Source: an uncultured delta proteobacterium
GTDB lineage: Bacteria; Desulfobacterota; Desulfobulbia; Desulfobulbales; Desulfocapsaceae
Direction of reading: 5' to 3'
Assembly (NCBI GenBank): GCA_963710015.1
Contig: CAVPYP010000005.1
Span: 52,841 to 116,840, forward strand
DNA: 64,000 bases
Made by a program: the position numbers and the translations under genes. Positions within the stretch are counted from its first letter, which is position 1; every line of letters starts with the position of its first letter. Below are positions 12,177 through 36,624 of the stretch, piece after piece. Below the pieces are notes generated by a model. It worked only from the letters and a program-made list of their open reading frames with translations, was not told the DNA's origin and ran no database searches.

Positions 12177-12543
12177 CGTTCTTCAGAACCCGGCTGGTGT
12201 AGAATCGGCAACCGGGCTGCATCTCCAGGTGATGTAACATTTCTGCGTTGGATGATGCCTTTATCGGTGCAGCAGAAGTGTCACTCATTGGCTGATCTCT
12301 GTCTAATGACAGGCTTTTAGTTAAAATGCACAGGTATATTCTGACTAATCGACAGAACCGTATATGTCAATATTCTTTGCTGGCGACTCTCGCGGCAGCG
12401 ATGTTCTTTAACAGCCTCCATTTATCGATTTGTGTATTATGGTGTTTTCTGGTTCAGCGGTATTGGCAGGAGCAGCGTAATTGCGGCTATGGTATGGTTT
12501 TTGGCGTATGGTGAAAAAAATTTAAAGAAAATCAAAATGCACA

Positions 12544-13281: not shown

Positions 13282-13454
13282 TCCCGTAATCTTTTCAGTT
13301 GCTCCTTCTCTACTCCAGGAAACCGCGCCGGAAATGGTCAGTGGTGCGCCTGTTATGCAGCATCACCTAGAGAGTCGACATGGTTTTTCTGCTGCAGGTG
13401 ATGCGGCAACGAGAATAACGATGTTTTTTCCGATTGACATTTAATCAGAGCGTC

Positions 13455-13482
13455 GTTAACCTCTGCCGAAATTATGGGTAAC
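13455..13482 (+). promoter_or_regulatory. Candidate BirA operator (GTTAACC-N14-GGGTAAC) overlapping the birA start
   Basis: An inverted repeat with 1 mismatch and a 14-nt spacer, read directly. This resembles the TTGTTAACC-N14-GGTTAACAA type of BirA site as I recall it. Confidence 0.35.
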
Positions 13483-14412: not shown

Positions 14413-14433
14413 TTAACAAAGAGAGATACGGAT

Positions 14434-14994
14434 ATGGATTCATCTACAAGACAATTAAAGTTAATGATTTATTCAGCGCTCATGGCCACGCTTACAGCGG
14501 TAGGCGCATACATCGCAATTCCAATCGGTCCGGTACCGATTGTGCTGCAAAATCTTTTCATTATGCTTGCCGGACTATTGCTGGGCGGGCGCTGGGCGCT
14601 CATCAGTATTGCGGTTTACCTGCTTGCTGGAGCTGTCGGTTTGCCTGTTTTTGCAGGCGGAACCGGCGGGATTGGTAAATTTGTGGGTCCGACGGGAGGA
14701 TACCTGCTGGGGTTTGCAGCGGCTGCTTATTGGATTGGAACCATCAGTGAAAAGGGGAACAGGCGCGTCATTATTGATATATTTGCCATGGTTACAGGTA
14801 CTCTCATCATCTATGCTTTTGGCGTCACATGGCTCAAAGTTGTTACAGGCATGAGTTTTTCAAAAGCCATTACGGTTGGTATGCTTCCCTTTTTGATCGG
14901 GGATGCGCTTAAAATTGCTGCGGCTGTGCCCATCGCCAAGGCCCTGAGACCGATGCTGGATGGCAGCGTCGGCACTCTGCAGCCGGTTAAGTAG
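14434..14994 (+). CDS. bioY: Biotin transporter S component
   Basis: 186 aa with 6 TM segments and a BioY pattern (...GPTGGYLLGF...GDALKI). Confidence 0.9.
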   Translation: MDSSTRQLKLMIYSALMATLTAVGAYIAIPIGPVPIVLQNLFIMLAGLLLGGRWALISIAVYLLAGAVGLPVFAGGTGGIGKFVGPTGGYLLGFAAAAYWIGTISEKGNRRVIIDIFAMVTGTLIIYAFGVTWLKVVTGMSFSKAITVGMLPFLIGDALKIAAAVPIAKALRPMLDGSVGTLQPVK

Positions 14995-14998
14995 TTTC

Positions 14999-15749
14999 GT
15001 GCCGATTATCCAGACAGACAGGCTGTGCCATTGTTTCTCCGATGGCACACGGAGTCTCGATGATGTATCACTCACCTTCGCCGAGGGTGACTTTACGGTT
15101 ATTGCCGGTGCCAACGGCTCGGGTAAAACCACCTTGCTAAAACATTTTAACGGGCTACTCTTTCCTCAATCGGGCACGGTTTCTGTCTGCGGTAAATCGG
15201 TGAAAAAGGATCCGTTTGCCGCCCGTCAGCAGGTGGGTATGGTTTTTCAGGATGCTGACAGCCAGATCATTGGCGATACGGTTTACGATGATGTGGCCTT
15301 CGGCCCGGAAAATTTGCGTTTAAACCAGGCCCAGATTTCTGAGCGGGTAAGCCGGTCACTGTCGGACGTAAACCTGGTCGGATTTGAGGATAAAAGCCCC
15401 CATAACCTCTCCGGCGGTGAGAAACGAAGGCTGGCTATTGCCGGGGTCCTGGCAATGGCCCCGAGAGTGCTGGTGATGGACGAGCCTTTTTCCAATCTTG
15501 ATTACCCGGCAACGTCTACAATCCTCGGTCAGCTTCTCAAGCTCCATGGGGCGGGGCATACGATTATCATAACAACTCACGACCTGGAGAAGGTAATTGC
15601 TTATGCGGACCGATTGATAGTAATGGAGCGACGGTCGGATCGTCAGAGACGGGTTGCCGGAAGAGGTGGTTGTCGGCATTGAGCAATACGGCATTCGGCC
15701 TCCATGTTCGGTGCAGCTCGGCAAGGGAATTCAGCCATGGGTGAGCTGA
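14999..15749 (+). pseudogene. bioM: ECF-transporter ATPase (BioM/EcfA) with a +1 frameshift near 15629
   Basis: GTG start. Walker A is GANGSGKTT, the signature is LSGGEKRR and Walker B is LVMDEP. After ...ADRLIVME the listed frame gives RRSDRQRRVAGRGGCRH*. The next frame gives the expected family C-terminus DGRIVRDGLPEEVVVGIEQYGIRPPCSVQLGKGIQPWVS*, which ends in an ATG..TGA overlap with bioN. Confidence 0.75.
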
Positions 15750-16477
15750 CGACCATCGGTTTTAAACCTGGTGCCTCCTTGCTCCACAGGCTTGATCCCC
15801 GCACAAAACAGCTGCTGATCATGGCACTGAGCGTGGCGTGTCTCGGGGCGGGTGTCGTTTTTCTCACTATTTTTTCGATCATGCTCATCGTGCTGTTTCA
15901 TCTGTCGAGTTTGAGATTCATTCAATTTCTCAGGGAGATACGGTACTTTTTGTTCTTTCTTCTGTTCATATTTGCGGTTCGGGCGCTAAGTTTCAGCGAT
16001 GATTTGCTTCCTGTCATTGATGCAGCCAATGTCAAAGAGGCGGCGCTGGTCTGCTGGCGATTGTTATTAGTTGTGCTGATGGGTGTGCTGTTAATATCCA
16101 CCACACGAACTGCTGATATACGTGCATCTCTTATCTGGTTTATGAAACCGCTTCCTTTTGTCAACGAGCGAATAGCGGCTACGATGGTAGGGCTGGTTGT
16201 CCGTCTCCTGCCGCTTGTCTTATTTCAGGCACAAGAACTGGGAGATGTGATGCGTGCCCGCGGCATTGAAAAACGTAAAAACCCGCTGCTGCGGCTCGTT
16301 ACATTTACAATCGCTCTCTTCCGCCGTGTCTTTCTGCGGGCTGACGGCCTGGCTGATACCATGCAGGCCCGGTGCTACAATGAATATCGGACACTTCCGG
16401 AGCTCTCATTTACCGGGGACGATGTTATTGCTGCCACAGTGAGTATAGTGCTACTGTCAACCGCCTTTGTTACCTGA
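15737..16477 (+). CDS. bioN: ECF-transporter transmembrane T component (BioN/EcfT)
   Basis: The start MGELTTIGFKPGASLLHRLDPRTK is the CbiQ/EcfT N-terminal signature. The conserved ARG motif is present (MRARGIE). Confidence 0.8.
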   Translation: MGELTTIGFKPGASLLHRLDPRTKQLLIMALSVACLGAGVVFLTIFSIMLIVLFHLSSLRFIQFLREIRYFLFFLLFIFAVRALSFSDDLLPVIDAANVKEAALVCWRLLLVVLMGVLLISTTRTADIRASLIWFMKPLPFVNERIAATMVGLVVRLLPLVLFQAQELGDVMRARGIEKRKNPLLRLVTFTIALFRRVFLRADGLADTMQARCYNEYRTLPELSFTGDDVIAATVSIVLLSTAFVT

Positions 16478-22365: not shown

Positions 22366-25038
22366 TCACTGCTTCGTCTCACTGCTGGTTTGATTGCCCT
22401 GAGCGGTACTCGATATTTTCGCTGTTTCCACCCTGTTTCTGCCATTGTGCTTTGCCTGGTAGAGTGCATTATCTACCGATTTGAGCAGTTCCTTGAGGGT
22501 GCGCCCGTGGATGGGTGCGGTAGCAACTCCGCAGGAAACGGTAAAATGTATTGTCCCGGAGCCGTGTGGAATTGCCAGCGTATCGGCAATTTCAGCCCGT
22601 ATTTTCTCGGCCTTGCGGAAGGCTCGATCTGTGGTGGTATTAACCATGATTATTATGAACTCCTCGCCGCCAAACCGACAGGCCAGATCTTCTCCACGTG
22701 TGTTTTTCTTCAGGTAGCGCCCGAGTTCCTGTAAAACAAAATCTCCCATCTCATGGCCGTAGGTATCATTGAAATTTTTGAAATGATCCACGTCAAGCAT
22801 GATGAGACTGCATTGAGTCTCATATCTCATCAGCCGATGAAACTGGCGTTGCAATATCTCTTCCATATGGCGTCTGTTTGCCAGACCGGTGAGGCTGTCC
22901 TGTATTGATTTGAGCTTGAGTTCTTCCTGGAGTTTGAGATTCGCAAAGGCCAGGGAAAGGTGGTCGGCAAGCCTGGCGCAGAGTCTGGTTTTACGATCCA
23001 GGAGTGCATCTGCGGTTTGCGGCTCCGTATTGATCGGGGCTTGAAAGACAATATGGAGCAGCCCGGTAATGACACCTTGGGCAATCAGCGGAATGCAGAG
23101 ATAGCCGTGAGGGGCTTCACCAACGTGTTCGCAGGACATATCCTGGTCCATCCCGTGAAAGAGATAGTTCTTCCCCTGTCTCAGGGCCCAGCAGCTGTCG
23201 CTGGTCATTGAGTTGAATGTCAAGGAATCCGGGACAGGCGGAACAACCTGGTCAAGCAGCTGGGTTGTTTCGTCGTGCAGGTAGAGCGTGCATGTATCAG
23301 CTGGAAATAATATTTTCAGATATTGTTTGATCACAGGAAAAGTCTCGCTGATAGAGCGGCAGGACTGCATCATATCGGCCATCTCGCCCATGTATCGATT
23401 CATCAGGTTTCGCTGTTCCAGCTCGGAAATCTGTAGGGAGAGCTCAGCTGTTCTCTTTTCTACCATTACCTCCAGATCTTCAAGAATCTTTTCCTGATTT
23501 TCCTCGGCAATTTTTCTATCATTTATGTCTGCAAGGAATCCTTCGATATGAGAGATCTCGTCACTGTTTGTTTTGTGAACTCCGCGAGCATTGAGCAGGC
23601 ACCAGAAAACAACCCCTGATTTTCTGTAGAGCTGAACCTCAAAAGCTTTTACCGTGCGTTCTTCAATGAGCGTCTCCATGATTTTACTGCAGAGCTCCTT
23701 TCTGACAATGAGATCCTGGTAGAAGTTTATTTTCTGGTCCAGCAATACCTGGCTGTTGTCGTAGCCAAGCATGGAAACAAACGATGGATTGACTTTGAGA
23801 ATATTTCCATCTGTGTCGAACTGGAAGATTCCCTCCACAGCATTCTCAAAGATTGACCTGAATCCTTTCTCTGATTCATGTAGCTTGTTGTTTGACATCT
23901 GGAGCTGAGCGAGAAAGGTATTAAAGTGATTCTCAAGCTGCCCAAGTTCGTCCAGTGACTTCGGTGACAAACGTTTACTGAAATCACCTTTCGAGGCAGC
24001 TTTAAGGCCGAGTGTCAGGTGTTTAATTGGTCGGGTGATGGTCTTGCTTATCTGCCAGGTCAGGCCAATAATGAGTATGCTCAACAGGATGATAATACCA
24101 AAGATAAAAGATCTCAAGTCGTTAAGGGGCCGGTAAAACTCATCGAGATAACCAGTAGAAGCAACAATCCAGTCCAGTTCGGGAACATAATCAAAATAGA
24201 CCTGAGCTTTACGGGTGGCCCGCTCTCCGGGAGGCTGCCACTTATAGGTCATAGTTCCTTTCTTAATCCTGCAGATTTCCTGGATAAACTTTCTTTCAGA
24301 AGAATCTTCCTGATTAAAGATATTCTCTCCTTCACGTTTCGGATGGATTACCAGGTTCCCTTTGGTATCCATGACGAAGGAAAAGCCGGTTTCGCCAAAC
24401 TGGTTGGCGAGAATTGATTTTCTCAACTCGTCAAGATCCAGATGAGAGCTGAAATCATCTTGGCTGACGGCAGCAGAGATAATCCAGTCCCACGGTCCGA
24501 AATAGGTCCGATAATGTGCCTTTCCCGTAGTCCAGTTCTCGTTTTGACGGTCTTTCGGCTGATGCGCAAGAGCGTACCCATATTTGGGTATTATGGTGCG
24601 GCCGCGGCTGTCCTTGCCTGTTATGCTTTTGCCAATTAACTCATTGTCAGGATGGGCCTGGATTTCTCCATTACTGTTGACCACATACAAAAATCCGGTC
24701 TTTCCTATAGATTGACTGGCAAATATTTTAACAGCCCGCTTCTTGGCTTCAACCTCTTTCAAGTCTTCCTGGTATATGCCAATGATGATCTCCAGGTTTC
24801 GTTCTACCACTATCCGGAGCTGATCGATAATTGAGTTATTTACTGCTGTCTTGATAATCAATCGATTTGCAAGGGTGCTGCTGCTCAGCTCTGTGGCGAT
24901 ATCTTTATTGATTGTGGAGCGCACAAATAGATAGATAATTGAGTTGCCGATAAGGATAACTAATAGGAAAATGAGCAGATAGCCGTAAAGTAACCTCGAC
25001 CTGATGGGTAGATTACGCGTCCATTTCTTAAAATTCAT
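22366..25038 (-). CDS. Membrane sensor diguanylate cyclase (dCache-HAMP-PAS-GAF-like-GGDEF)
   Basis: Has TM segments, a periplasmic double-Cache-like region, HAMP, PAS and a C-terminal GGDEF domain with RFGGEEF. I chose the ATG at 25038 (MNFKKWTRNL...); the alternative is 25077. Confidence 0.85.
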   Translation of the reverse strand: MNFKKWTRNLPIRSRLLYGYLLIFLLVILIGNSIIYLFVRSTINKDIATELSSSTLANRLIIKTAVNNSIIDQLRIVVERNLEIIIGIYQEDLKEVEAKKRAVKIFASQSIGKTGFLYVVNSNGEIQAHPDNELIGKSITGKDSRGRTIIPKYGYALAHQPKDRQNENWTTGKAHYRTYFGPWDWIISAAVSQDDFSSHLDLDELRKSILANQFGETGFSFVMDTKGNLVIHPKREGENIFNQEDSSERKFIQEICRIKKGTMTYKWQPPGERATRKAQVYFDYVPELDWIVASTGYLDEFYRPLNDLRSFIFGIIILLSILIIGLTWQISKTITRPIKHLTLGLKAASKGDFSKRLSPKSLDELGQLENHFNTFLAQLQMSNNKLHESEKGFRSIFENAVEGIFQFDTDGNILKVNPSFVSMLGYDNSQVLLDQKINFYQDLIVRKELCSKIMETLIEERTVKAFEVQLYRKSGVVFWCLLNARGVHKTNSDEISHIEGFLADINDRKIAEENQEKILEDLEVMVEKRTAELSLQISELEQRNLMNRYMGEMADMMQSCRSISETFPVIKQYLKILFPADTCTLYLHDETTQLLDQVVPPVPDSLTFNSMTSDSCWALRQGKNYLFHGMDQDMSCEHVGEAPHGYLCIPLIAQGVITGLLHIVFQAPINTEPQTADALLDRKTRLCARLADHLSLAFANLKLQEELKLKSIQDSLTGLANRRHMEEILQRQFHRLMRYETQCSLIMLDVDHFKNFNDTYGHEMGDFVLQELGRYLKKNTRGEDLACRFGGEEFIIIMVNTTTDRAFRKAEKIRAEIADTLAIPHGSGTIHFTVSCGVATAPIHGRTLKELLKSVDNALYQAKHNGRNRVETAKISSTAQGNQTSSETKQ

Positions 25039-25445
25039 ACTCACCCTGTTGCCAATAAAAAAATCATTAAATTGCATATCGACCTTATCAAGTATACCTG
25101 AACCACGGGCCCCATTCAAATTTCATCACCGTAAATTGAAGGTGAATGTTTATTATTCACAGTAGTTTTAACAAAAATCAGCAGAACCGCCGGCGATGCC
25201 GGGAAGTAAAGCCAGGCGTTTTATGCGTGGTCGTTTACTGGCGGCTGGCAGGAAAAACTTGACACTTCATATTTTGAACTGAATATTCTCTTATACTGAG
25301 TGGGAAGACCAGCAATTATTCGTTAACAGATGGCCTTGGGGTGGGCTTTCACGGCTTGAACTGTCAAGATACACCATGGTAACTGTTTGATTTAATCTGC
25401 CCGGGATTTCCAGCACGTTGAACACTGTTAAAGGAGAGTACATAC

Positions 25446-26843
25446 ATGCAGGAATCGTCTGAGCCTTTGTGGGATAGAACACTGAGACGGATTAGAGAAA
25501 TATGGCCGCTCGGAGACCCTGAGCTGAAGAATATGGTGAGTCCCTCTTTTCCTAAAAGTGACTTCGCTAGAGTGAGAGATAAAATTGATGCCTGTCTCGA
25601 GAACCTGGGAGGGGAGGTCTCGGCGCGAGCGCGTGCTGCAGAACTTGGGGAGGCTTACTCTGTGCTCAATGCTGACGGGAGAAAACGGTTTCTGGAGCTT
25701 CTGGCGGGAGAATACGACGTGGACAATGTGGCGGTGGAGAAGGCCATCACCAAACATCGCCAGGCAGTTGAGACAGATGAAAAACAGATAGCCACGGCCC
25801 AGCTGCGTGATCTGCTCGAGCCTCCTCGCTCACGGCTCATGAGGCAATTCAATGGCCTGCAGGAAGGGGTGAAGTTCTTGGTCGATCTGAGGGCCGAACT
25901 TATTGAATGGGCCCGTGAGAGCCGCGAACTAAAGGCGCTGGACAGCGATGTCTACCGGCTCCTGGAGTCCTGGTTCGATGTCGGTTTTCTGGACCTGCGT
26001 CTTATTACCTGGAAAACCCCGGCTGACCTGCTTGAAAAGTTGGTTAAATATGAGGCGGTTCATAAAATAAGATCATGGCAGGACATGAAGAACAGGCTTG
26101 AAGAGGATAGACGATGCTATGCATTTTTTCATCCCCGTATGCCCGATGAACCTCTTATATTTGTCGAGGTGGCGCTTGTTAACGGCATTTCAACGAATGT
26201 GCATGAACTCCTTGATGAGCAGGCACCGGCCGGTAACCCCAAAGAAGCTGATACCGCTATTTTCTACTCAATTTCCACCTGCCAGAAAGGCCTGGCCGGT
26301 GTTAGTTTTGGTAATTTCCTGATAAAACGGGTTGTTGCTGATCTCAAGACAAATCTGCCGAACCTGAAAACGTTTTCGACCCTGTCCCCGATTCCTGGTT
26401 TTGTAGGCTGGGTAAAGACTCTCACTGAGGAGAATCATCCGTTTCTTCGTGAGTCAGAAGCGATCACATTATTGCAGTCAGATGGGTTCACTGCCGAGCA
26501 GTTTCGGGACGTTATGAGTCCGGATGATAAGGCGGATAAAGAGACCAAGGAGCGGGCGAAAACAATGGAGCAGAGTCTGCTCCGGCTCTGCGCCCATTAT
26601 CTGCTGGAAGAGAAAAGAGGAACCCAGGCGCATGACAGAGTGGCGCATTTTCATTTGACCAACGGGGCGAAAGTTAAACAGATAAACTGTGCTGCTGACC
26701 TTACAGACAACGGCATTATGCAGTCCGCCGGGATGATGGTTAACTACCTGTATGACCTGCCAACTATCGACAAGAACCATGAAGCCTATTCCGGCCAGGG
26801 TGAGATAGCAGCGATGGCACCAGTGAAAAAATTGCTGAAATAA
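25446..26843 (+). CDS. Malonyl-CoA decarboxylase
   Basis: 465 aa. The MCD family pattern is present (...FYSISTCQKGLAGVSFGNFLIKRVV...STLSPIPGF). An AAAGGAGAG ribosome-binding site is present. Confidence 0.8.
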   Translation: MQESSEPLWDRTLRRIREIWPLGDPELKNMVSPSFPKSDFARVRDKIDACLENLGGEVSARARAAELGEAYSVLNADGRKRFLELLAGEYDVDNVAVEKAITKHRQAVETDEKQIATAQLRDLLEPPRSRLMRQFNGLQEGVKFLVDLRAELIEWARESRELKALDSDVYRLLESWFDVGFLDLRLITWKTPADLLEKLVKYEAVHKIRSWQDMKNRLEEDRRCYAFFHPRMPDEPLIFVEVALVNGISTNVHELLDEQAPAGNPKEADTAIFYSISTCQKGLAGVSFGNFLIKRVVADLKTNLPNLKTFSTLSPIPGFVGWVKTLTEENHPFLRESEAITLLQSDGFTAEQFRDVMSPDDKADKETKERAKTMEQSLLRLCAHYLLEEKRGTQAHDRVAHFHLTNGAKVKQINCAADLTDNGIMQSAGMMVNYLYDLPTIDKNHEAYSGQGEIAAMAPVKKLLK

Positions 26844-27024
26844 GGTGTTTTCCCGCAAGCCTGATGGAGTGTTAGAATTTTGTCCTGGAGTTGCGTATGG
26901 CGCTGATCATGACTATTGAGTAATAAAGCAGCCTCTAGAAGGTGCGGCTGTCTGCGGTCTTCTTCTGTTTTCCCGTGTCGCCGGAAAATCAATACTCAAT
27001 TAATAAATCGCCAAGGAGATAACT

Positions 27025-27486
27025 ATGAGCCAACTTAGAAAAATATTACTTCTCGTTACCTCTGCAATCTTCTGCAGCGCCCTGCTCGCCGGGCAGGCAT
27101 TTGCCCATTGTCAGATTCCCTGCGGTATTTATGATGATCATGCCCGGGTGACAGCAATGCTTGAGGACGCAGCGACGGTAGAAAAATCGATTAAGCTGAT
27201 CAATGAGCTTGCCGGCAAGTCAGACGCTCAGTCTCAGAACCAGCTGGTCAGGTGGGTGGTCAATAAAGAGAATCATGCCCAGAAGATCATCTCCTCGATC
27301 AGCGATTATTTTTTGACTCAGAGAGTAAAAGCAGACCAGGAGGATTACACAGAACGTTTAGTCACGCATCATGCGGTTATCGTGGCGGCAATGAAGGCAA
27401 AACAAAACAGTGATATGGCCTCCGCAGCGGCTTTAAAAGAAAGTATCGAGGCGTTGATACCCTATTATCCCGAGCATAAAGAATAA
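27025..27486 (+). CDS. sodN: Nickel superoxide dismutase precursor with Sec-type signal peptide
   Basis: The Ni-hook HCQIPCGIYDD (compare HCDLPCGVYDP) follows directly after MSQLRKILLLVTSAIFCSALLAGQAFA. An AAGGAG ribosome-binding site is present. Confidence 0.85.
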   Translation: MSQLRKILLLVTSAIFCSALLAGQAFAHCQIPCGIYDDHARVTAMLEDAATVEKSIKLINELAGKSDAQSQNQLVRWVVNKENHAQKIISSISDYFLTQRVKADQEDYTERLVTHHAVIVAAMKAKQNSDMASAAALKESIEALIPYYPEHKE

Positions 27487-27651: not shown

Positions 27652-28575
27652 ATGAAGTTTGAGACATTTGCGAAACCTGATTTTATAGGGATCGGTCCGC
27701 CAAAGACTGGTACCACCTGGATTTATGCGAACCTGCTGAACCACCCGCAGGTGGAGATGCCCCCTGACAAGGAGATCAGGTATTTCTGGGAAAAACATTT
27801 TATCGGAAAATTAACCCTCAGGGAGTGGCTGACCAGTGATCACTGGCATGTCAGAGGAAGAAGAACCTATCATAAAAACAGGTTTCGCAAGCATTTCCTG
27901 GACGCGGCAGCGTTCAAGCTCAATGTCAAGGAGTTACGCTGGGACTGGAAATATCTGAGTCGGAACCGCACGGATAAATGGTATGCGTCCCTGTTTCAGG
28001 AGCATGTCATCAGTGGCGATATCACGGCAAAGTATTGTGAACTGCCGGCAGATGAGATAGTCAATATAAGCAGGGTTTTCCCACGGCTGAAAATCATCAT
28101 TACGCTTCGTGATCCCATCGAGCGGGAGTGGTCACGGGCCAAAATGAACCTGAGTAAAAAACCAGGCCGCCAGCTATCTGACGTGACGCACCAGGAATTT
28201 ATCGACCAGTTCAACGACCCGCCTCAGAAGAAATCTAATGATTATGCTGCATTGATTGATCAGTGGCGGAAAGGCTTTGACAAAGATCAAATTCTGGTTC
28301 TCTTTTATGATGAACTCTTGGAAAATCCGTTCCGCTACTTTTCTAAACTTTGTGAATTCCTGGCAATCAGCGGTCCCGATTCGAGTGCCAGGAGGGAGCT
28401 GGAAAAATATGTCTTCAAGGGGGTGAGAGGGGTGGTTCCCGAGGTCTATAAAGATGCGTTGTTCAGTATGCACAAGGAGCATATTTGTAGGCTGATAGAT
28501 TACGCTCCCACCGCTGATTATCCCAGGAACTGGTTGAAGAAGTACCAGGCGGCTGGTGAATCAGCGGGCAGTTAA
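27652..28575 (+). CDS. PAPS-dependent sulfotransferase-family protein
   Basis: The 5'-PSB loop is GPPKTGTTW and the 3'-PB motif is TLRDPIEREWS. There is no signal peptide. Confidence 0.75.
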   Translation: MKFETFAKPDFIGIGPPKTGTTWIYANLLNHPQVEMPPDKEIRYFWEKHFIGKLTLREWLTSDHWHVRGRRTYHKNRFRKHFLDAAAFKLNVKELRWDWKYLSRNRTDKWYASLFQEHVISGDITAKYCELPADEIVNISRVFPRLKIIITLRDPIEREWSRAKMNLSKKPGRQLSDVTHQEFIDQFNDPPQKKSNDYAALIDQWRKGFDKDQILVLFYDELLENPFRYFSKLCEFLAISGPDSSARRELEKYVFKGVRGVVPEVYKDALFSMHKEHICRLIDYAPTADYPRNWLKKYQAAGESAGS

Positions 28576-28623: not shown

Positions 28624-28651
28624 TTGACTATTTTAAAATGTTTGCTATTAA
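28624..28651 (+). promoter_or_regulatory. Sigma70-like promoter (TTGACT-16-TATTAA) feeding the riboswitch
   Basis: Read directly. It lies just upstream of the P1 helix of the riboswitch. Confidence 0.45.
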
Positions 28652-28865
28652 TGGTCCACTAGAGAAGCATGAAGGTAAGCCTCTGGAAGGCTTCAGGAAA
28701 TGGGACATTGTTTTCTGCAGGGAACCCGATGAAATTCCGGGACGGACCCGCCGCTGTGAGTGAGGACGAGGGCTGTATTAAGCCACTTCATTGCAGGTAA
28801 GCTTACGAAGCAATGGGGGAAGGCAGAGCCTGTAGGATGATCCACGAGTCAGAATATCTGACCTC
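28650..28865 (+). promoter_or_regulatory. Cobalamin (B12) riboswitch
   Basis: The core is GGGAACCCGAUGAAAUUCCGGGACGGACCCGCCGCUGUGA (28720-28759). GCCACUU..hairpin..GGGGGAAGGC spans 28782-28824. The B12-box-like AGUCAGAAUAUCUGACC lies at 28847-28863. P1 pairs GGUC with GACC. Confidence 0.85.
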
Positions 28866-28897
28866 ATTGCTTAAACCTCTCGGAGAGACGGTAAATC

Positions 28898-28937
28898 CCC
28901 GAGCTGACATAATTTGTGTCGGTTTGGGATTTTTTTT
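28898..28937 (+). terminator. Intrinsic terminator forming the riboswitch expression platform
   Basis: CCCGAGCUGAC / 9-nt loop / GUCGGUUUGGG (11 bp including 3 G-U pairs), followed by A+U8. It lies 70 nt before the transporter ATG. Confidence 0.6.
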
Positions 28938-29006
28938 GCCGACTCGGATGACAATGGCTGAAACGGTTATGCAACGGCACACCGGACTCCATTGGCGGGA
29001 GATCTT

Positions 29007-30980
29007 ATGGACAATTATTCTATTTTTCTCACTCTTCTGGCTGGTTACATCTCGTTTCTTTTTATGATCGGATACCTGTTTAACAGGCGTCAAACATCGT
29101 TAAGAGAATTTCTCCTGGGCGGCAGGCGCGCGGGGACGCTTTCCATCGGTTTTTCAGCGGCAGCCTCCTGGCTGACAGCTGGTGCTTTACTTGCCGTGAT
29201 CGGCTTTTTCATGCTTCTCGGCATGGGTTCTATCTGGGGATTTGTGGCACCCAATATTTTGGCCTTGCTGGCGATCGCTCTGCTCGTTCCCAAGATTCGC
29301 TCAATACCAGCCATGACCCAGCCGGAACTCCTTGAAATTCGCTATGGCTCATTTCTCAGGCTTCCTGTGGCCCTGATAATCATTGTGGTCATGATTCTCT
29401 TTACGGTTGCAGATATTAAGGGCTTTGCCATGGTGTTACAGGTGTTTTACGGCATTGATCCCCTGCAGGCTGCTGTTATTGTCGGCTTGTCTGTGGCTGT
29501 ATACGTCACACTCGGCGGTCTTTCAGCGGTGATAACTACTGATATTATTCAGTATCTATGCCTCGCAGGTTTTGTTCTGGTTATGGCTGTGCTGGTCATG
29601 GGCGGGGCCGGCGAAGTCTCCGACATGAGTGAAAGAGATCTCTTCCTTTCGGCTGACAACACATGGTGGAATCCCCTGTCAATCGGTCTGCCGATGATAC
29701 TCATATTCTGCTGCGCTATACTGCCTGGCTGGGTAAGCGAGCAGGACCCCTGGCAGAAGATATGGGCGGCCCGTGATCAGCGGTCGGCCAGAAACGGCAT
29801 GTTTTTGGGGGCAATACTGGTTTTCGCAGCCTTTTCAGGATGTGCGGTCATTGCCCTGGGCTTGAATGTGCTTTACCCCGAAATCGGTGCGATGGGTTTT
29901 CCAATGGGACTGGCAAAGGGTGAGTCAGCCCTTCTGATTTTTATCATAGATAGTGGCTTTTCAGATATCGCAGTTGCTCTCTGTGCAGTGGCCCTGGCAA
30001 CTGCAGCAATGTCGTGTGCCGATACATTCGCCGCCTCAGGCGCTTCATGCATAGCACGAGATCTTTACCAGCGCTACCTGAACCCTGCAGCTTCTGTGCA
30101 CCAGATGATGGTAATAAATCGTCTCAGTGTCCTGATAATCATCGGTTGCTCAGTTCTCGGATCATTTTTTATCGACTCCATTATCGATGCGATTCATATC
30201 GCCACCTTTATTGCCAGCGCCTCATACTTTTTTGCTCTTATGGGCGGTATTTACTGGAAGAGAGGAACTGGTATCGGGGCCGCCACATCTTTAATCAGCG
30301 GATTTGTGCTGCAATCAACCCTGATAATTGTTGATTTGATCGCTACCCAGAAGGGGGCTCCTTCTTACCTGGAGTCCCTCCACCCATTATTGATGGGCCA
30401 CGGCGTTATCGCTGCCATGTCTGTAAGCGGTCTGGTTTACCTGGGTGTGTCAATGGCGACAAGCCCCTCAGAGCGTTTCAGGCTGGCGCCATTTTTCAAG
30501 TCCGAGGCAGCGCTGATGGCCCCAGCCAGCAGTGATCTGTCCAACAGCCACGGCTTTCCTGAAGGCACAGCTGTCTCCGAAACGTTATCCGGAACGACAA
30601 TCTTTTGCAGGGTGAGTATTGAATTTTCACCCCGGTTCAGTTGGAAGGAGGTCGTCAGATCGATTTCCTCACGCTATCCCTACTGGGTCTCCTGGTGCGG
30701 GATAGAGACAATTCGAAGATGTACCACCGCAGATATCAATTCAGCAGTATCCTTATCTCCGGGAGAGACATCAACGGGCTGCTGGCTTGAAATTGAAGGG
30801 GATGCTGCGTTTGCAGATGATTTACGCCGGGAGCTCGCTTCTGCGTTCGCGGAAGTACAGCGCACTGTTGAGGTGATGCCGAAGGAGCGTCGTGAAGATC
30901 ATCCCAGCGCCGCTGGGGCAGGAAAGGTTGCGGTTCATGAATCTATGTCGGTTGCCCTGCTGGCAGATAGGAGCGAATAA
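29007..30980 (+). CDS. Sodium:solute symporter (SSS) family transporter with ~170-aa uncharacterised C-terminal domain
   Basis: A GGGAG ribosome-binding site is present. About 13-14 TM segments fit the SSS pattern (...GGLSAVITTDIIQY...). The soluble tail runs 30468-30977. Confidence 0.85.
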   Translation: MDNYSIFLTLLAGYISFLFMIGYLFNRRQTSLREFLLGGRRAGTLSIGFSAAASWLTAGALLAVIGFFMLLGMGSIWGFVAPNILALLAIALLVPKIRSIPAMTQPELLEIRYGSFLRLPVALIIIVVMILFTVADIKGFAMVLQVFYGIDPLQAAVIVGLSVAVYVTLGGLSAVITTDIIQYLCLAGFVLVMAVLVMGGAGEVSDMSERDLFLSADNTWWNPLSIGLPMILIFCCAILPGWVSEQDPWQKIWAARDQRSARNGMFLGAILVFAAFSGCAVIALGLNVLYPEIGAMGFPMGLAKGESALLIFIIDSGFSDIAVALCAVALATAAMSCADTFAASGASCIARDLYQRYLNPAASVHQMMVINRLSVLIIIGCSVLGSFFIDSIIDAIHIATFIASASYFFALMGGIYWKRGTGIGAATSLISGFVLQSTLIIVDLIATQKGAPSYLESLHPLLMGHGVIAAMSVSGLVYLGVSMATSPSERFRLAPFFKSEAALMAPASSDLSNSHGFPEGTAVSETLSGTTIFCRVSIEFSPRFSWKEVVRSISSRYPYWVSWCGIETIRRCTTADINSAVSLSPGETSTGCWLEIEGDAAFADDLRRELASAFAEVQRTVEVMPKERREDHPSAAGAGKVAVHESMSVALLADRSE

Positions 30981-31323
30981 GGATGTTCCTGAGTTTCCGG
31001 CGTGATGAGACCATCTGCCGGAGGGGAAAATAGATCTTTATCTACTCCAGTGGTAAGAGTCGTTGAGCTGGGAGACAGCCGCCTTAATAGCAAAAACACG
31101 CTGTCAAAACCAGTGTATTGATAAGCCTTTATCTCAGATCTCGGCAGAAACGCGCACACTAGCAGAGGAGTTGCGCCGCCATCAGAGCGATGAGCTATTT
31201 TGACCTGGAGGCCTCCATGCGCTTGAGAAACAGTGCCGGTTCGTGTTAGGTTATCAGGGTGCGAGATTGTTCTCTTTCTCTCGGGATTCCATCAGGTCAC
31301 TTTTTCGAAGAGGTACGATCACT

Positions 31324-31587
31324 ATGAGCCAGGAATACTCCTTTACCCTGACAGTCCCCCTCGTTGATCGCTCAATGGCGGAGTCCTTTCTGGAACAGGC
31401 AAAAAAGCGATTTCCCCATATTCGTATCAGCAGAAAAACCAACAGAAAACAGTGCGCCCGATACTACCTGAGTTTTCCATTTTCCAATGCTCGGCCGGAC
31501 CTTAAATTCGAGGAGTGGTTCCAGGAACTGGGGAAAAATGACTGGGATCTTTTCGGACCGACCTACGGGCGATGGGGGCTTGCCTGA
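31324..31587 (+). CDS. Hypothetical protein (87 aa)
   Basis: The ATG follows GAAGAGG. I recognise no family (MSQEYSFTLTVPLVDRSMAESFLEQAKKRF...). Confidence 0.4.
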   Translation: MSQEYSFTLTVPLVDRSMAESFLEQAKKRFPHIRISRKTNRKQCARYYLSFPFSNARPDLKFEEWFQELGKNDWDLFGPTYGRWGLA

Positions 31588-31684: not shown

Positions 31685-33982
31685 TTAAAGCATGCAGGTA
31701 CTCATAACCTGTTTCAGGTCGGTGAGCCCTTCGAAGATCAGATGAATTCCCTCCTGCAGCAGTACTGTCATGCCATCATCAATTGCGGCCAGTTTGATCT
31801 CTTCGGCCGGTTCCTTGCGGATGATCTGGTCCTTGATCTGCCGGTTGGCGACCAGCAGTTCGAAAAGCCCCTTTCTTCCCTTGTAGCCGCTGCCGTTGCA
31901 TTCATCACAGCCATTTGACCGAAAAAGCGTCAGATCTTTTGAGTAATTGATATTTAAATGTTCAAAAAACAGGGCGCCGTAATGATGTACCAGGTGATCA
32001 TACTCCTGCTTGGATGGGTTGTACGGTTCCTTGCACTCCTCGCACAGCGTCCTGACCAGCCGCTGGGCGAGCACCCCGAGCAGGGCATCGGAAAAATTAA
32101 ATGGGTCCATGCCCATATCGATCAGTCTGATCACTGTTTCAGCAGCTGAATTTGTGTGAAGTGTGCTGAAAACGAGATGACCGGTCAGCGAGGCTTCAAT
32201 ACCCATCTTTGCGGTTTCCTGGTCACGCATTTCACCAATCATTATGACGTCTGGATCTGCCCGCAGGAAGGCCCGCATCGCGGCGGCAAAGGTGTAGCCG
32301 ATATATGGTTTCACCTGAACCTGGCGGAGGCGGTATTGGGTTATTTCCACCGGATCTTCGGCCGTCCATATTTTTTTATCAGGAGTATTTATGTAACGTA
32401 AAACCGAATGGAGCGTTGTTGTTTTACCAGAACCGGTTGGCCCGACAACCAGGAAAATACCATATGGCTTGGTGATTACCGGGACAAGGCGCTCAAGAAT
32501 TCTTTCCGGGGCAATCTGGAGCATCGGGAGCGGCTTGCTGTCTGCCAGAATACGCAGAACCACATCCTCGTTACCATCAGCAGTTGGCAGTGTCGCCACG
32601 CGTAACTCAACATTATTTGCCTGGGTTGTGGTAAATTTAATTTTTCCGTCCTGAGGTTTCCTGCGTTCTGAAATATCCAGATCAGCCAATACTTTTATCC
32701 GTGCAATGACAGATCTGACATTGGTTTTGGGGATGTTGATGATATGTGAACAGGCGCCGTCGACGCGGAACCGCACTTCTGCATCCTTCAGATTTCCATA
32801 TGGTTCTATATGGATATCAGAGGCTCCGGCAAAATAGGCGTCTTCAATCATTTTATTGACAAGCTGTACTGCCGGGGTACCGTCAACTTCAACATCGAGC
32901 GGTTCTTCGTCCTGCTGTGCATAGATAGAGTCACTGTACTGCTCTTCTTCCGGTACTTCGTCGATATCACCAATATCTTCGAGATCCTCCTCACTCGGGG
33001 GAGAGACAGAATCGAGCAGTTGTTTTATGTCGTCTCCGAAGGCGAGCAATACACTGACCTTGGAGGCATGAAAAAGTTTTTTAACCTCGAGGATGCCGGT
33101 TTGGTTGGCCGGATTTTTAGCAGCTACAACCAATTCATTTCTTGTTTTCTGCAGCGGTATAACAAAGTGTCTCCGCAGGATGTCAATATTTGCATTTTCA
33201 AGCAGAGATCGTGCCGAGTACTCTTCGATTTTAAGGTCAACAAAACGTGTTTTATAGACAGAAGAGAGGGCGTCACCCAGATCGGTCTTGGCAACCATGA
33301 AGTTTTCCATTAGTACCGTCTCAACTTCCTTTTCCTGCTGGGTGGCAATGACCATGGCCCGTTCCATCTCCTGGGCTGAAATGATCTCACGATTGACCAG
33401 CTCTTCATAGCGCATAGGAACTTTTTTACCGCTCTTGTAGTGATTAAACAGTGCGATAGCAAGCGTGTCGGCCAGTTCCTTCATACGGGTTTCGTCAATT
33501 GAATCGAACTCAGCTCCCTGTTTCTTGTTAATGAGTTCGATCACCCCCATCAGGTTGGCTTTATGAACAATCGGGGTTGCCAATATCTGCTTGGACCGAC
33601 TGCCTCCTTTTTTGTCCCAGGAGGAGTCAAAACTCAGGGTCGGATCAATTGCCTGCAGTTCTTCATTGTCATAAACATTTGAAATGTTGAGGGTTTGCTT
33701 TGTTTCGGCGACAAACCCGGTGATTGATGACCGGTTGATATCCATCCTGATCTTGCGCAGTGAGTCACTGGGCAGTAAAACCCATGATACAAGTTTATTT
33801 TTCTTGGCATCGACCAGAAAAATAGTTGCCATCTCAACATTATAGATATTGAGGATCTTATTGCGAAGGCCAACCATGATGGCATTGGGTGATGAAGCTG
33901 AATGAATTTCGTTGACAAGTTTCTTGAAACGATCGTCAAAGATTCGTTGGGAGGCTATTGCGGTGGAAGGATTTTCAGTCAT
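31685..33982 (-). CDS. GspE/PilB-family secretion ATPase with N-terminal GAF domain
   Basis: 765 aa with the order GAF (..GFVAETKQTLNISNVY..GVIELINKK), a T2SSE_N-like domain, then the ATPase core. Walker A is GPTGSGKTT. The Asp/His boxes and the tetracysteine CEECK...CDECNGSGY are present. Confidence 0.88.
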   Translation of the reverse strand: MTENPSTAIASQRIFDDRFKKLVNEIHSASSPNAIMVGLRNKILNIYNVEMATIFLVDAKKNKLVSWVLLPSDSLRKIRMDINRSSITGFVAETKQTLNISNVYDNEELQAIDPTLSFDSSWDKKGGSRSKQILATPIVHKANLMGVIELINKKQGAEFDSIDETRMKELADTLAIALFNHYKSGKKVPMRYEELVNREIISAQEMERAMVIATQQEKEVETVLMENFMVAKTDLGDALSSVYKTRFVDLKIEEYSARSLLENANIDILRRHFVIPLQKTRNELVVAAKNPANQTGILEVKKLFHASKVSVLLAFGDDIKQLLDSVSPPSEEDLEDIGDIDEVPEEEQYSDSIYAQQDEEPLDVEVDGTPAVQLVNKMIEDAYFAGASDIHIEPYGNLKDAEVRFRVDGACSHIINIPKTNVRSVIARIKVLADLDISERRKPQDGKIKFTTTQANNVELRVATLPTADGNEDVVLRILADSKPLPMLQIAPERILERLVPVITKPYGIFLVVGPTGSGKTTTLHSVLRYINTPDKKIWTAEDPVEITQYRLRQVQVKPYIGYTFAAAMRAFLRADPDVIMIGEMRDQETAKMGIEASLTGHLVFSTLHTNSAAETVIRLIDMGMDPFNFSDALLGVLAQRLVRTLCEECKEPYNPSKQEYDHLVHHYGALFFEHLNINYSKDLTLFRSNGCDECNGSGYKGRKGLFELLVANRQIKDQIIRKEPAEEIKLAAIDDGMTVLLQEGIHLIFEGLTDLKQVMSTCML

Positions 33983-34188
33983 ATTTATCTAAGTACTGGT
34001 TAATGTAGCTTATAATTCGGCGCGCTCTGCGAACGGCTGAGCTGCGGGAATATATGTCCGGCAGCCCGATAACACCGTTTAGTATATCACAATCAAAGCA
34101 ACAGTAAAAATTTCGCTGCAATTAATTGAACTGCGTAACCGAAGGATCTGTTTTCTTAGGTAAAAACGGGTGATAGTGTGGTTACAGA

Positions 34189-34237
34189 AAAAAGGCGGGA
34201 GCGCACTGAGGAGGCCTGATGAGCCCCCTCAGTGCGC
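34189..34237 (-). terminator. Rho-independent terminator of the rubrerythrin gene
   Basis: The stem is 11 bp (gcgcactgagg/cctcagtgcgc). On the minus strand it is followed by a T6 run. Confidence 0.65.
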
Positions 34238-34257
34238 TAAAGAAAGAGAGAAAATAA

Positions 34258-34758
34258 TCAGGCTACCTTCTCGAAAACTTTGGACAATGCGCCGCAGATA
34301 GGGCATGTGTGGGGGGCGGTACCCAGTTCGATGTATCCGCAGATGGGGCAGAGATAAAAGTCAGTGACGTCAAGGTCAACACCTGATTTTACGGCTTCAA
34401 GGGCCTTGGTGTAGATTTCGGCATGAACCTTCTCTGCTCCAAGCGCGAAGCGAAACATGGTCTTGGCACGATGGCCCTCCTCGTTGGCCAGTTCGCTCAT
34501 GGGCGGATACATTTCGGTGTATTCATAGGTCTCTCCTTCTATGGCGCCTTTCAGGTTTTCAGCAGTCGAGGCGATGGCGTCAAGAGCCTTGAGGTGCCCC
34601 TCGGCGTGGATTCGCTCGGCCTCCGCTGTTGTCTTAAAAAGCTTGGCGATATTTACGAAACCTTCTCTTTCCGCCTTCTTGGCAAAGGCACTGTATTTCT
34701 GGTAGGCCTGGCTTTCGCCGGCAAACGCATCCTTTAGATTTTCTGTTGTTGAAGCCAT
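34258..34758 (-). CDS. rbr: Rubrerythrin
   Basis: 166 aa with a diiron four-helix domain (ExxH twice) and a C-terminal rubredoxin-like CPICG...CPICG. Confidence 0.92.
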   Translation of the reverse strand: MASTTENLKDAFAGESQAYQKYSAFAKKAEREGFVNIAKLFKTTAEAERIHAEGHLKALDAIASTAENLKGAIEGETYEYTEMYPPMSELANEEGHRAKTMFRFALGAEKVHAEIYTKALEAVKSGVDLDVTDFYLCPICGYIELGTAPHTCPICGALSKVFEKVA

Positions 34759-35046
34759 GTTTTCTCCTCAGGTCAATAGTAAAAGTAGTAATAAAAACAG
34801 TCTGGTGATAGAAACTTTCAGAAACTGACTATACATGAAAAATCTCCATATGCAAAAAGAGAATTCAACTCCCGGATATCTGCGGCTCCAGCCCGGCAGG
34901 TTCGAGCGCAAATGGATGATTCACGGAACAGCTCGATGCTGCTATACTGGGCGAAGGGTCAAATCATGCTGGCAATAGGGTTGGGTCAGGTGCTATAAGT
35001 TAACAGGTGCAAATTTCATAATAATAACCAGTTGGAGTTACTCGCC

Positions 35047-36624
35047 ATGAAGGGGTGGAATCTTCCGTATTGTTCACGAAGGCCGGTGGTAATGGCCTCA
35101 AATATTGTCTCAACCTCGCAGCCGCTCGCTTCACAGGCGGGATTGCGGATGCTGATGGAGGGCGGTAATGGTGTTGATGCTGCACTGGCAGCCGCAATCG
35201 CCTTGACCGTGCTGGAGCCGACAGGCAACGGCATTGGCAGTGATGCCTTTGCGCTGATATGGGATACGAAAGAACTGCATGGAATCAATGGTTCAGGAAG
35301 ATCTCCCGCTTCATGGTCATTTGAGCGCTTTGCCCACCTTGATGAGATGCCCAGATACGGCTGGGACTCTGTGACTGTTCCAGGAGCAGTCTCGGTCTGG
35401 AATGAGCTCTCTGGGCGCTTTGGCAAGCTGCCGTTCCGGCAATTGTTCGAACCGGCTATCGACTATGCCCGCGGGGGCTTCCCCGTGTCTCCGATTATTG
35501 CACGAAAATGGCAGACGGCTGGAGAGATTCACCAGGGTTTCGAAGAATTTTCCAGAGTCTTTCTGCCAGACGGCAGGTCACCTGAAGCCGGTTCGGTCTT
35601 TTATTTCAAAGAGGCTGCTTCGACGCTTGAAGAGATAAGCCAAACGGCAGGAGAATCATTTTACCGCGGAGATCTTGCGCGAGTGATTGCCCGCAGCTCC
35701 AAAGCGCAGGGCGGCGGTTTGAGCTATGCTGATCTTGCCTCGCATCAGGCGCAATGGGTGAGACCCATTAGCCAGCGATATCGGGGCATGGACCTTTTCG
35801 AAATACCGCCCAACGGGCAGGGAATTGCAGCTCTGATTGCACTTGGAATTCTTGATAACTTTGAGCTGAAACAATACCCGGTTGATTCGGTGGACTCGGT
35901 CCACCTGCAGGTGGAGGCGATGAAACTTGCCTTTGCCGATGTCTCCTGCCACCTGGCTGATATTGAAGCGATGAGAATAGATTACCGGGAAATGCTTACT
36001 CCCGGCTACCTGAAAAAAAGAGCTGAAAGTATCGATATGGGCAAAGCTCGGTTACCGGCCAGCGGCATTCCTGAAGGCGGGGGAACGGTCTACCTGGCAG
36101 CTGCAGACGCTGACGGCATGATGGTCTCATTAATCCAGTCAAATTTTAAGGGCTTTGGTTCGGGCATTGTCGTACCTGGGACGGGAATCAGCCTGAATAA
36201 TCGGGGATATGGCTTCAGGGTCCAGGATGGTCATCCAAATTGTGTTGGAGGCAGTAAAAAACCATTCCATACAATTATCCCGGGGTTTGTTATGGCTCGA
36301 GGGGAACCGCTGATGGCGTTTGGTGTTATGGGTGCTCATATGCAGGCACAGGGGCATGTGCAGATGATGACCCGGATCTTTGACTATGGACAGAATCCGC
36401 AGGCTGCGTCTGATGCTCCCCGCTGGCATGTCACCGAGGAATCGGGACTGGCGCTCGAAAATGCATTTCCGCTTTCAGTTATCCAGGGACTCAGGAAGCG
36501 CGGGCATCAGATCTGCCCGGAAGAAGATGATATGTTCGGTGGTGCTCAGCTGATCCTTAAATCGGGAAAGCACTATATTGCCGGGTCAGACCATAGAAAA
36601 GACGGGCAATCGGTGGGCTTTTAG
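35047..36624 (+). CDS. ggt: Gamma-glutamyltransferase
   Basis: GGT family. The autoprocessing site GGGTVYLAAAD is present, followed by the small-subunit motifs. Confidence 0.9.
   Translation: MKGWNLPYCSRRPVVMASNIVSTSQPLASQAGLRMLMEGGNGVDAALAAAIALTVLEPTGNGIGSDAFALIWDTKELHGINGSGRSPASWSFERFAHLDEMPRYGWDSVTVPGAVSVWNELSGRFGKLPFRQLFEPAIDYARGGFPVSPIIARKWQTAGEIHQGFEEFSRVFLPDGRSPEAGSVFYFKEAASTLEEISQTAGESFYRGDLARVIARSSKAQGGGLSYADLASHQAQWVRPISQRYRGMDLFEIPPNGQGIAALIALGILDNFELKQYPVDSVDSVHLQVEAMKLAFADVSCHLADIEAMRIDYREMLTPGYLKKRAESIDMGKARLPASGIPEGGGTVYLAAADADGMMVSLIQSNFKGFGSGIVVPGTGISLNNRGYGFRVQDGHPNCVGGSKKPFHTIIPGFVMARGEPLMAFGVMGAHMQAQGHVQMMTRIFDYGQNPQAASDAPRWHVTEESGLALENAFPLSVIQGLRKRGHQICPEEDDMFGGAQLILKSGKHYIAGSDHRKDGQSVGF

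Follow-up and report, generated by a model that had tools for sequence, protein, structure and literature searches.

The structure of a cobamide is set by its lower ligand, and many microbes depend on other organisms for lower ligands or for the precursors of these. To our knowledge, CblT of Firmicutes, which takes up alpha-ribazole, is the only lower-ligand uptake system on record. Here we describe a locus that may encode another one. It lies in a 64-kb stretch of DNA from an uncultured bacterium of the family Desulfocapsaceae (contig CAVPYP010000005.1; the whole stretch is called “the window” below) and consists of a cobalamin (B12) riboswitch and a gene for a permease of the sodium:solute symporter (SSS) family. 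We suggest, with a probability of about 0.6, that this is a B12-repressed uptake gene whose product imports a benzimidazole-type precursor of the lower ligand. The most probable substrate is 5-hydroxybenzimidazole (5-OHBza), its alpha-riboside also being possible. The regulatory principle and the protein superfamily are known; the link of this family to cobamide metabolism and the predicted class of substrates are new.

Comparison with described systems

CblT is a small substrate-capture subunit of the energy-coupling factor (ECF) type, and the substrate shown for it is reportedly a riboside. CblS and CblT use activated lower-ligand bases from the environment (PMC6461909), and cblTS is listed under “DMB uptake” (PMC8123684), DMB being 5,6-dimethylbenzimidazole. 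The permease of the window would resemble this system as a B12-regulon route of uptake for an environmental lower-ligand precursor. However, CblT of Firmicutes alpha-ribazole salvage is paired with a kinase, whereas the window permease is an SSS/LeuT-fold carrier with no kinase linked to it, and its hosts are Desulfobacterota and methanogens; the resemblance is functional only.

The bza operons (bzaA-bzaB or bzaF, cobT, bzaC, bzaD, bzaE) reportedly have a riboswitch upstream. Some permease loci of relatives share with them cobalamin control, bzaC, a gene for a BzaD-like radical S-adenosylmethionine (SAM) protein and, at one locus, cobT. They differ in that the transporter takes the place of the base synthase (BzaAB/BzaF).

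RF00174 leaders, that is, cobalamin riboswitches, also precede the uptake genes of BtuB/BtuFCD, BtuM and CbrT. These proteins belong to unrelated families and have the whole corrinoid as a substrate, whereas the genomic partners of the SSS gene point to the lower ligand only. Finally, the characterised SSS transporters (SiaT, vSGLT/SGLT, PutP, PanF, ActP, CHT1, NIS, SMVT and DUR3) have in common with the window permease the Pfam family, the LeuT fold and a serine equivalent to Ser364 of vSGLT. The window family differs from them by its low identity to the solved members (about 21% or less), by a cysteine at the second serine of the Na2 site, in most members by an extra C-terminal domain, and by the cobalamin riboswitch.

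In the full-text literature we found no report connecting SSS transporters with B12 riboswitches, cobamides or benzimidazoles. The author of the original prediction for the locus, made from the sequence alone, knew of no characterised B12-regulated SSS member. An account of the permease family or of a transporter of free benzimidazoles was not found either; the full text searched excludes most subscription papers, and an earlier mention is possible.

The riboswitch and the permease gene in the window

The cobalamin riboswitch is the sole match in the window to any of the 4227 families of Rfam 15 (cmscan). The features of the locus are as follows.

28624..28652, + strand: candidate sigma70-like promoter, read from the sequence (TTGACT at 28624-28629, a 16-nt spacer, TATTAA(T) at 28646-28652)
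28657..28879, + strand: cobalamin riboswitch aptamer RF00174 (cmscan, 78.2 bits against a gathering score of 31.5, E 1.5e-17, model positions 1-189 of 189)
28880..28943, + strand: expression platform (CUCGGAGAGAyGGUAAAUCCCC leader, terminator hairpin 28898-28928, U8 28930-28937, GCCGAC 28938-28943)
28997..29002, + strand: ribosome-binding site (RBS) GGGAGA, 4 nt 5' of the ATG, with GGGAGG/GGAGG kept at the same position in 25 aligned loci
29007..30980, + strand: whole coding sequence of the permease with the stop codon, 657 aa, ATG at 29007 (list of open reading frames (ORFs) and translation)
29007..30461, + strand: SSS/LeuT-fold permease core, aa 1 to ~485 (PF00474, AlphaFold2 model, Foldseek)
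30573..30896, + strand: C-terminal soluble domain of cytoplasmic type, aa 523-630, past the last transmembrane helix (~aa 485; AlphaFold2 domain model, pLDDT 89)

The original prediction was that a sigma70-like promoter, a cobalamin riboswitch and a terminator control an SSS-family permease, the only gene downstream. The riboswitch is clearly there, and the sequence blocks quoted for it fall within the RF00174 match. The family of the permease was also named correctly: the Pfam SSF profile PF00474 scores 92.3 bits against a gathering score of 22.8, aligning aa 35-432 with profile positions 1-406 of 406. The permease is probably the only gene under the switch, because the next substantial gene downstream, encoding a GAF-MshEN-T2SSE ATPase (31685-33982), sits on the opposite strand; a 114-aa ORF of the + strand lies at 31243-31587. 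Other details needed correction. The hairpin and the U8 are real, but the stem, given as 11 bp, has 14 pairs; the RBS is real as well, but position 29007, assigned to it, is that of the ATG.

The two promoter hexamers are present in the sequence and are kept in the two closest relatives (loci L001 and L084), where the flanking sequence diverges. The pair TTGACT/TATTAA is a plausible candidate promoter. A strict consensus scan missed it because the last base of the -10 hexamer (position 6) is A.

The 3' end of the aptamer is separated from the permease ATG by 128 nt. The terminator hairpin (6 of its 14 pairs are G-C; terminator scan) has an energy of about -20.6 kcal/mol when taken alone, and RNAfold places it in both the minimum free energy and the centroid structure of the whole leader. 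Alignment of 25 leaders gave a common layout: CUCGGAGAGAyGGUAAAUCCCCGGGCUGA-loop-UGUCGGCUGGGGA, often a U-run, then GCCGAC, then the GGGAGG RBS. The U-run follows the hairpin in about half of the relatives. An 11-bp core of the stem is paired in 88.6% of the alignment cells, compared with at most 54% if the partner is slid. Covariation in the stem is almost lacking in these leaders (one double change only); the stem is conserved in sequence and hence uninformative on pairing. Conservation of the expression platform therefore supports its function but does not independently support its structure. We infer that the riboswitch is an OFF-switch, i.e., that it would respond to the ligand by lowering expression.

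Conservation of the riboswitch upstream of orthologues

We compared 80 loci from GTDB species genomes and 80 from metagenomes. The bacterial clade includes 50 of these loci, the window among them, and for 48 the upstream sequence is long enough to judge; the counts are not de-replicated. The original prediction raised the question whether RF00174 is conserved upstream of orthologues, and it can be answered positively. By cmscan, 36 loci including the window have a match to RF00174 that reaches the gathering score just 5' of the orthologue or its operon; the other 35 score 74-128 bits. If nhmmer-only matches with the window leader are counted too, the switch is found in 45 of the 48 assessable bacterial loci. 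Both the switch and the permease are present in cultured organisms: Desulforapulum autotrophicum HRM2 (100.7 bits), Desulfopila aestuarii DSM 18488, Desulforhopalus singaporensis and Desulfospira joergensenii.

The bacterial loci that have no switch are L018, L086 and L125. In L086 the permease gene lies 20 nt behind another ORF, and the missing switch looks like a secondary loss. P0132, the closest outgroup gene of the SSS family (30% identity), lacks both the riboswitch and a B12 context. RF00174 was not found in the archaeal loci scanned, and its absence is expected for archaea. Taken together, these data make it almost certain that the family is a conserved transporter regulated by a B12 riboswitch.

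Operon partners of the permease in bacteria

Gene context was studied by clustering ORFs across all loci and annotating the cluster representatives. In the bacterial loci the sole recurrent functional partners of the permease are enzymes that activate the lower ligand (CobT) or tailor it (BzaC, BzaD-like, BzaE-like). The operons with these partners do not contain the enzyme that forms the base.

At 18 loci (L007, L008, L010, L015, L016, L017, L021, L024, L028, L029, L047, L083, L094, L110, L113, L141, L159 and L160) a gene for an O-methyltransferase+DUF2284 (Methyltransf_2+DUF2284) protein of ~508 aa lies 0-70 nt behind the SSS gene and in the same orientation. If the locus reaches far enough, two genes for radical-SAM proteins of the B12-binding type come after the methyltransferase. 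ACN14675.1 of HRM2 and WP_022669285.1 of Desulfospira joergensenii were classed as bzaC, above the trusted cut-off, by Shelton et al. (PMC6461909 supplement). For the second gene of the set the best NCBIfam match by far is BzaD (TIGR04385, 401-424 bits, E 1e-120 to 1e-127; cut-off 450), and the third gene is recognised only as a generic B12-type radical-SAM protein. The order is thus riboswitch, SSS, bzaC, (BzaD-like radical-SAM gene), (second B12-type radical-SAM gene), and it is found in the cultured HRM2 as well. No ThiC-family gene for a base synthase (BzaAB/BzaF) was found inside the SSS-bzaC operons. In HRM2 the bzaC-like gene and the two radical-SAM genes behind the permease occupy positions 11882-16263 of locus L083 (CP001087.1); the same set of genes occurs in L007, L015 and other loci.

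HRM2 makes a 5-methylbenzimidazolyl-cobamide, not cobalamin (PMC6461909 supplement file 7). Because of this report, and because the radical-SAM genes score below the BzaD cut-off, the SSS-linked operon of bzaC and two radical-SAM genes is a candidate pathway of 5-methylbenzimidazole rather than the standard DMB pathway. If this is true, such operons in Desulfobacterales would mark a still unknown route to 5-methylbenzimidazole.

In a locus from a marine metagenome (L121) the riboswitch (RF00174, 127.9 bits) is followed by cobT, then by a bzaC-like gene of 340 aa, then by the SSS gene. Two models recognise this cobT above their cut-offs, NF000996 (421 bits, cut-off 306) and TIGR03160 (416 bits, cut-off 319). 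Moorella has the layout bzaA-bzaB-cobT-bzaC (PMC8123684); the cobT-bzaC arrangement of L121 is the same, with a transporter instead of the base synthase.

At locus L020 a ThiC-family radical-SAM gene (929-2536) has its own RF00174 riboswitch (80.4 bits) and lies ~2.4 kb upstream of the riboswitch-SSS unit. By context it is bzaF-like: BzaF was reportedly first recognised as a ThiC paralogue under a cobalamin, not a thiamine pyrophosphate, switch. NCBIfam prefers ThiC for this gene and for the Methanimicrococcus genes described below alike, and comparison with the PDB has only ThiC structures to offer. bzaF is also encoded in at least four carriers of the permease, namely HRM2, Desulfospira joergensenii, Desulfopila aestuarii and Desulforhopalus singaporensis (PMC6461909 supplement). 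If present, it lies elsewhere in the genome, away from the SSS operon.

Proposed mechanism and substrate

The recurrence of bzaC with BzaD-/BzaE-like genes, or of cobT-bzaC, as operon partners favours import of a lower-ligand compound. We propose the following mechanism. A promoter near 28624-28652 would start a leader RNA that folds into the cobalamin aptamer (28657-28879). At a high cobamide level the ligand-bound aptamer would let the hairpin and the U8 (28898-28937) end transcription, and the permease would not be made; in relatives with short leaders the RBS may also be masked. At a low level, read-through would yield the 657-aa secondary transporter. After import, the benzimidazole base would either go straight to CobT for activation and then be attached, or be tailored beforehand by BzaC and the B12-dependent radical-SAM enzymes.

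Methanogens use a 5-hydroxybenzimidazolyl cobamide, Factor III. 5-Hydroxybenzimidazole, which we consider the likeliest substrate, is used by both CobT and BzaC, and methanogens have it as the native lower ligand of this cobamide. PMC8123684 equates Factor III with [5-OHBza]Cba. The restriction of the family to Desulfobacterota and methanogens, which is described below, fits this reading because both are users of benzimidazolyl cobamides. The solved SSS relatives carry small solutes of the same size class as benzimidazole: sugars, sialic acid, choline, iodide, urea, monocarboxylates, and vitamins about as large as biotin or pantothenate.

A serious alternative substrate, unlikely as it is on balance, is a benzimidazole alpha-riboside (5-OHBza-riboside or an alpha-ribazole-like compound) instead of the free base; the permease would then be a functional analogue of CblT. 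BzaC reportedly prefers the riboside form, some SSS members take sugar-like substrates (SGLT, SiaT), and the adjacency of SSS and bzaC without cobT in the 18 loci would suit direct uptake of a riboside. The regiospecific CobT-BzaC route of Mathur et al., as summarised in a review (PMC8123684), is in line with this as well. However, the CobT enzyme encoded in the operon of L121 acts on the free base, and no gene for a CblS-like riboside kinase was found beside any locus.

Import of a corrinoid or of a cobinamide-type precursor, which would make the permease a new secondary B12 transporter like BtuM, seems very improbable to us. B12 riboswitches do most often control genes of corrinoid uptake. 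In addition, many B12-related transporters are still to be identified (PMC8123684). On the other hand, the structurally characterised SSS relatives that we found all carry small solutes, the operon partners act on the lower ligand and not on the corrin, and no btuF, cbiZ or cobU neighbours were found at the loci.

The transporter family and its distribution

The AlphaFold2 model of the permease (pLDDT 77, pTM 0.78) is an SSS carrier of 13-14 helices. Its top Foldseek matches are SGLT2, SiaT, CHT1 and NIS (E from 1e-13 to 1e-8, target-normalised TM-scores up to 0.80), and DUR3 and vSGLT were returned as well; identities are only 16-21%. Among the solved structures SiaT is the closest in sequence (E 1.5e-18), and the solved relatives are ~20% identical or less. 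Assignment to a named SSS subfamily was rejected, as the NCBIfam scores are far below the cut-offs: 81 vs 515 for PutP, 60 vs 328 for PanF, 43 vs 750 for ActP and 93 vs 321 for the VC_2705 family. Even the superfamily model TIGR00813 stays under its cut-off (122.7 vs 184), as do all matching NCBIfam SSS models. Profile alignment to vSGLT shows that, in the Na2 site, Ser336 corresponds to Ser364 of vSGLT and Cys337, invariant in the family, to Ser365.

A word-indexed search returned more than 500 homologues, and the best 120 are all at least 53% identical to the permease. The named sources among these 120 are Desulfocapsaceae, Desulfobacteraceae and Methanosarcinales archaea, and the protein names are generic only. 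The closest full-length homologues (P0001-P0004) have 91-73% identity. When 1.84 billion cluster representatives were searched exhaustively with phmmer, full-length matches scored 638, 500 and 451 bits (61, 45 and 42% identity), and the next ones reached no more than 193 bits (~30%). Judged by these similarity scores, the family is a discrete, sharply bounded SSS clade without a characterised member.

The family is found only in Desulfobacterota and in Methanosarcinales, Methanotrichales and Methanocellales. In a neighbour-joining tree of 146 SSS sequences the Desulfobacterota form one clade nested among archaeal clades, with Methanosarcinaceae as the sister group and Methanotrichales and Methanocellales as basal groups. 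This is a quick distance tree, midpoint-rooted and without support values, and it suggests an inter-domain transfer of the transporter. We would give slightly less than even odds to a broader claim: that free benzimidazole bases of the lower ligand, typified by 5-hydroxybenzimidazole, have in this clade their first dedicated family of transporters, common to sulfate-reducing Desulfobacterota and methanogens apparently through inter-domain transfer, and riboswitch-gated in bacteria.

Gene context in archaea

In Methanothrix (L045-L080) and in the Methanocellales locus L073 the SSS gene overlaps by 4 nt with, and is translationally coupled to, a downstream gene for a flavoprotein of the geranylgeranyl reductase (GGR) family (TIGR02032, 223 bits). 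The pair is retained in L073 despite different flanking genes. In Methanosarcinaceae a gene for a PRK06052 “methionine synthase”, i.e., a MetE-like protein (550 bits, no Pfam match), stands beside the orthologue in two arrangements.

L034-L038, L041, L127, L129, L131, L138: MetE-like gene downstream
L097, L098, L102-L106, L109: MetE-like gene divergent, upstream

This adjacency may be mere synteny or may reflect a link through methyl transfer. Tblastn found neither the MetE-like nor the GGR-like gene in the 64-kb window.

The original prediction offered two kinds of substrate: a corrinoid-related compound such as a lower ligand, or a metabolite that bypasses a B12-dependent step, such as methionine or a methyl donor. 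The lower-ligand branch gains from the bza/cobT operons, and the second is faintly suggested by the MetE-like neighbour in some archaea. B12 riboswitches classically repress genes of B12-independent bypass, so a permease for methionine, homocysteine or a methyl donor, bypassing or supporting a B12-dependent step, would be regulated like metE, and the two arrangements of the MetE-like gene agree with it. We nevertheless consider such an import quite improbable. The bacteria that bear the riboswitch have as the only recurrent partners bzaC, BzaD-like genes, cobT and the ThiC/BzaF-like gene, no met gene was found in any bacterial locus, and in archaea the MetE-like gene neighbours the orthologue in a single family, perhaps through synteny alone.

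In Methanimicrococcus a ThiC-annotated gene lies 41 nt downstream of the SSS gene (L139 3605-4897, L140 7952-9244); it is 39% identical to the ThiC-like gene of L020. In three archaeal loci purM, the gene of aminoimidazole ribotide (AIR) synthetase, is convergent with the orthologue. These neighbours, together with the ThiC-family gene near the orthologue in L020, could point to another compound of the pathway: the permease might import an aminoimidazole riboside that feeds BzaF/ThiC, or export toxic benzimidazole intermediates. Characterised SSS members are ion-coupled importers, which speaks against efflux. DMB is toxic as a flavin antagonist (PMC10468695), and this toxicity makes an exporter co-expressed with bzaCDE conceivable. 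Still, both variants are highly improbable in our estimation: AIR is an abundant purine intermediate, so that it is difficult to see why its import should be under B12-specific control; purM is convergent with the orthologue and does not form an operon with it; and the cobT-bzaC-SSS operon of L121 has no base synthase.

Other neighbours in archaea include HerA/NurA, a DEAD helicase, a PTO1314-like radical-SAM protein and a SAM hydroxide adenosyltransferase. None of the GGR-like, MetE-like, ThiC-annotated and purM neighbours is clearly for or against the benzimidazole hypothesis.

Arguments against the proposed function, and what it would mean if true

A number of observations weigh against the import of a benzimidazole-type precursor. 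The substrate is assigned purely through guilt by association. In the window and in most Desulfocapsaceae loci the permease gene is monocistronic and has no bza or cob neighbour, and tblastn found no bza or cobT gene in the 64-kb window. The two radical-SAM genes of the SSS-bzaC operons are both under the trusted cut-off of BzaD and are divergent from trusted BzaD and BzaE. Since bzaF is encoded in at least four genomes that carry the permease, the importer does not replace a missing synthase there, and salvage alongside synthesis must be assumed. The archaeal neighbourhoods are heterogeneous and contain no consistent B12 or benzimidazole signal. As to the protein, one canonical serine of the Na2 site is replaced by the invariant cysteine; as to the leader, no antiterminator was resolved in it, and the terminator stem shows the near-lack of covariation mentioned above. 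Furthermore, the usual assumption is that benzimidazoles, which are small and rather hydrophobic, enter the cell by diffusion, so a dedicated importer is not obviously needed. The inward direction of transport and the coupling ion are inferred as well.

If the proposed function is true, the permease would supply a missing uptake component of lower-ligand salvage and widen the substrate range of the SSS family. It would also improve the genome-based prediction of which anaerobes salvage lower ligands and which make them, and would open the cross-feeding of lower ligands in anoxic sediments to study at the molecular level. The orthologue in D. autotrophicum HRM2, a cultured organism with a complete genome and a known cobamide, is a testable candidate.

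C-terminal domain and neighbouring genes

The soluble domain at the C-terminus has the topology strand-strand-helix-strand-strand-strand-helix, with invariant Trp546 and Trp560 and a DSIRR-like motif. Neither Pfam nor NCBIfam has a model that matches it. No PDB fold matched it at E<0.001; the best one (E 0.007) is a weak resemblance to the phosphomutase C-domain and to SRPBCC-like folds. The domain is kept in long (~630-660 aa) bacterial and archaeal members and missing from the Desulfobacula/Desulfospira clade with ~520-aa proteins. It may be a regulatory or ligand-binding module.

Other neighbours in several bacterial loci (signalling proteins, peroxiredoxins, MobB, carbonic anhydrase, HlyD, a YgjP-like protein, patatin and the like) were considered as partners and discarded, as none is recurrent or B12-related. 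In Desulfopila aestuarii (L004, 6899-7579) a gene for a protein with an FmdE domain and a DksA/TraR zinc finger overlaps the stop codon of the permease and is likely co-transcribed with it under the riboswitch. In Desulforhopalus singaporensis (L027, 333-457) there is a Moco/tungsten riboswitch (RF01055, 60.4 bits) ~4.5 kb 5' of the permease locus, unrelated to the finding.

The flanks of the window locus (22366-27486 and 31685-36624) encode a Cache-PAS-GAF-GGDEF cyclase, malonyl-CoA decarboxylase, Ni-superoxide dismutase, the GAF-MshEN-T2SSE ATPase, rubrerythrin and gamma-glutamyltranspeptidase. None of them is B12-related, and the set fits an anaerobic Desulfobacterota genome. Directly 5' of the window riboswitch there is a sulfotransferase gene (Sulfotransfer_3, 27652-28575, + strand), and a gene for a fusion of TPR and sulfotransferase lies directly 3' of the orthologue without a riboswitch in L018 (6534-8732). 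The presence of sulfotransferase genes beside the permease in both places may be a coincidence.

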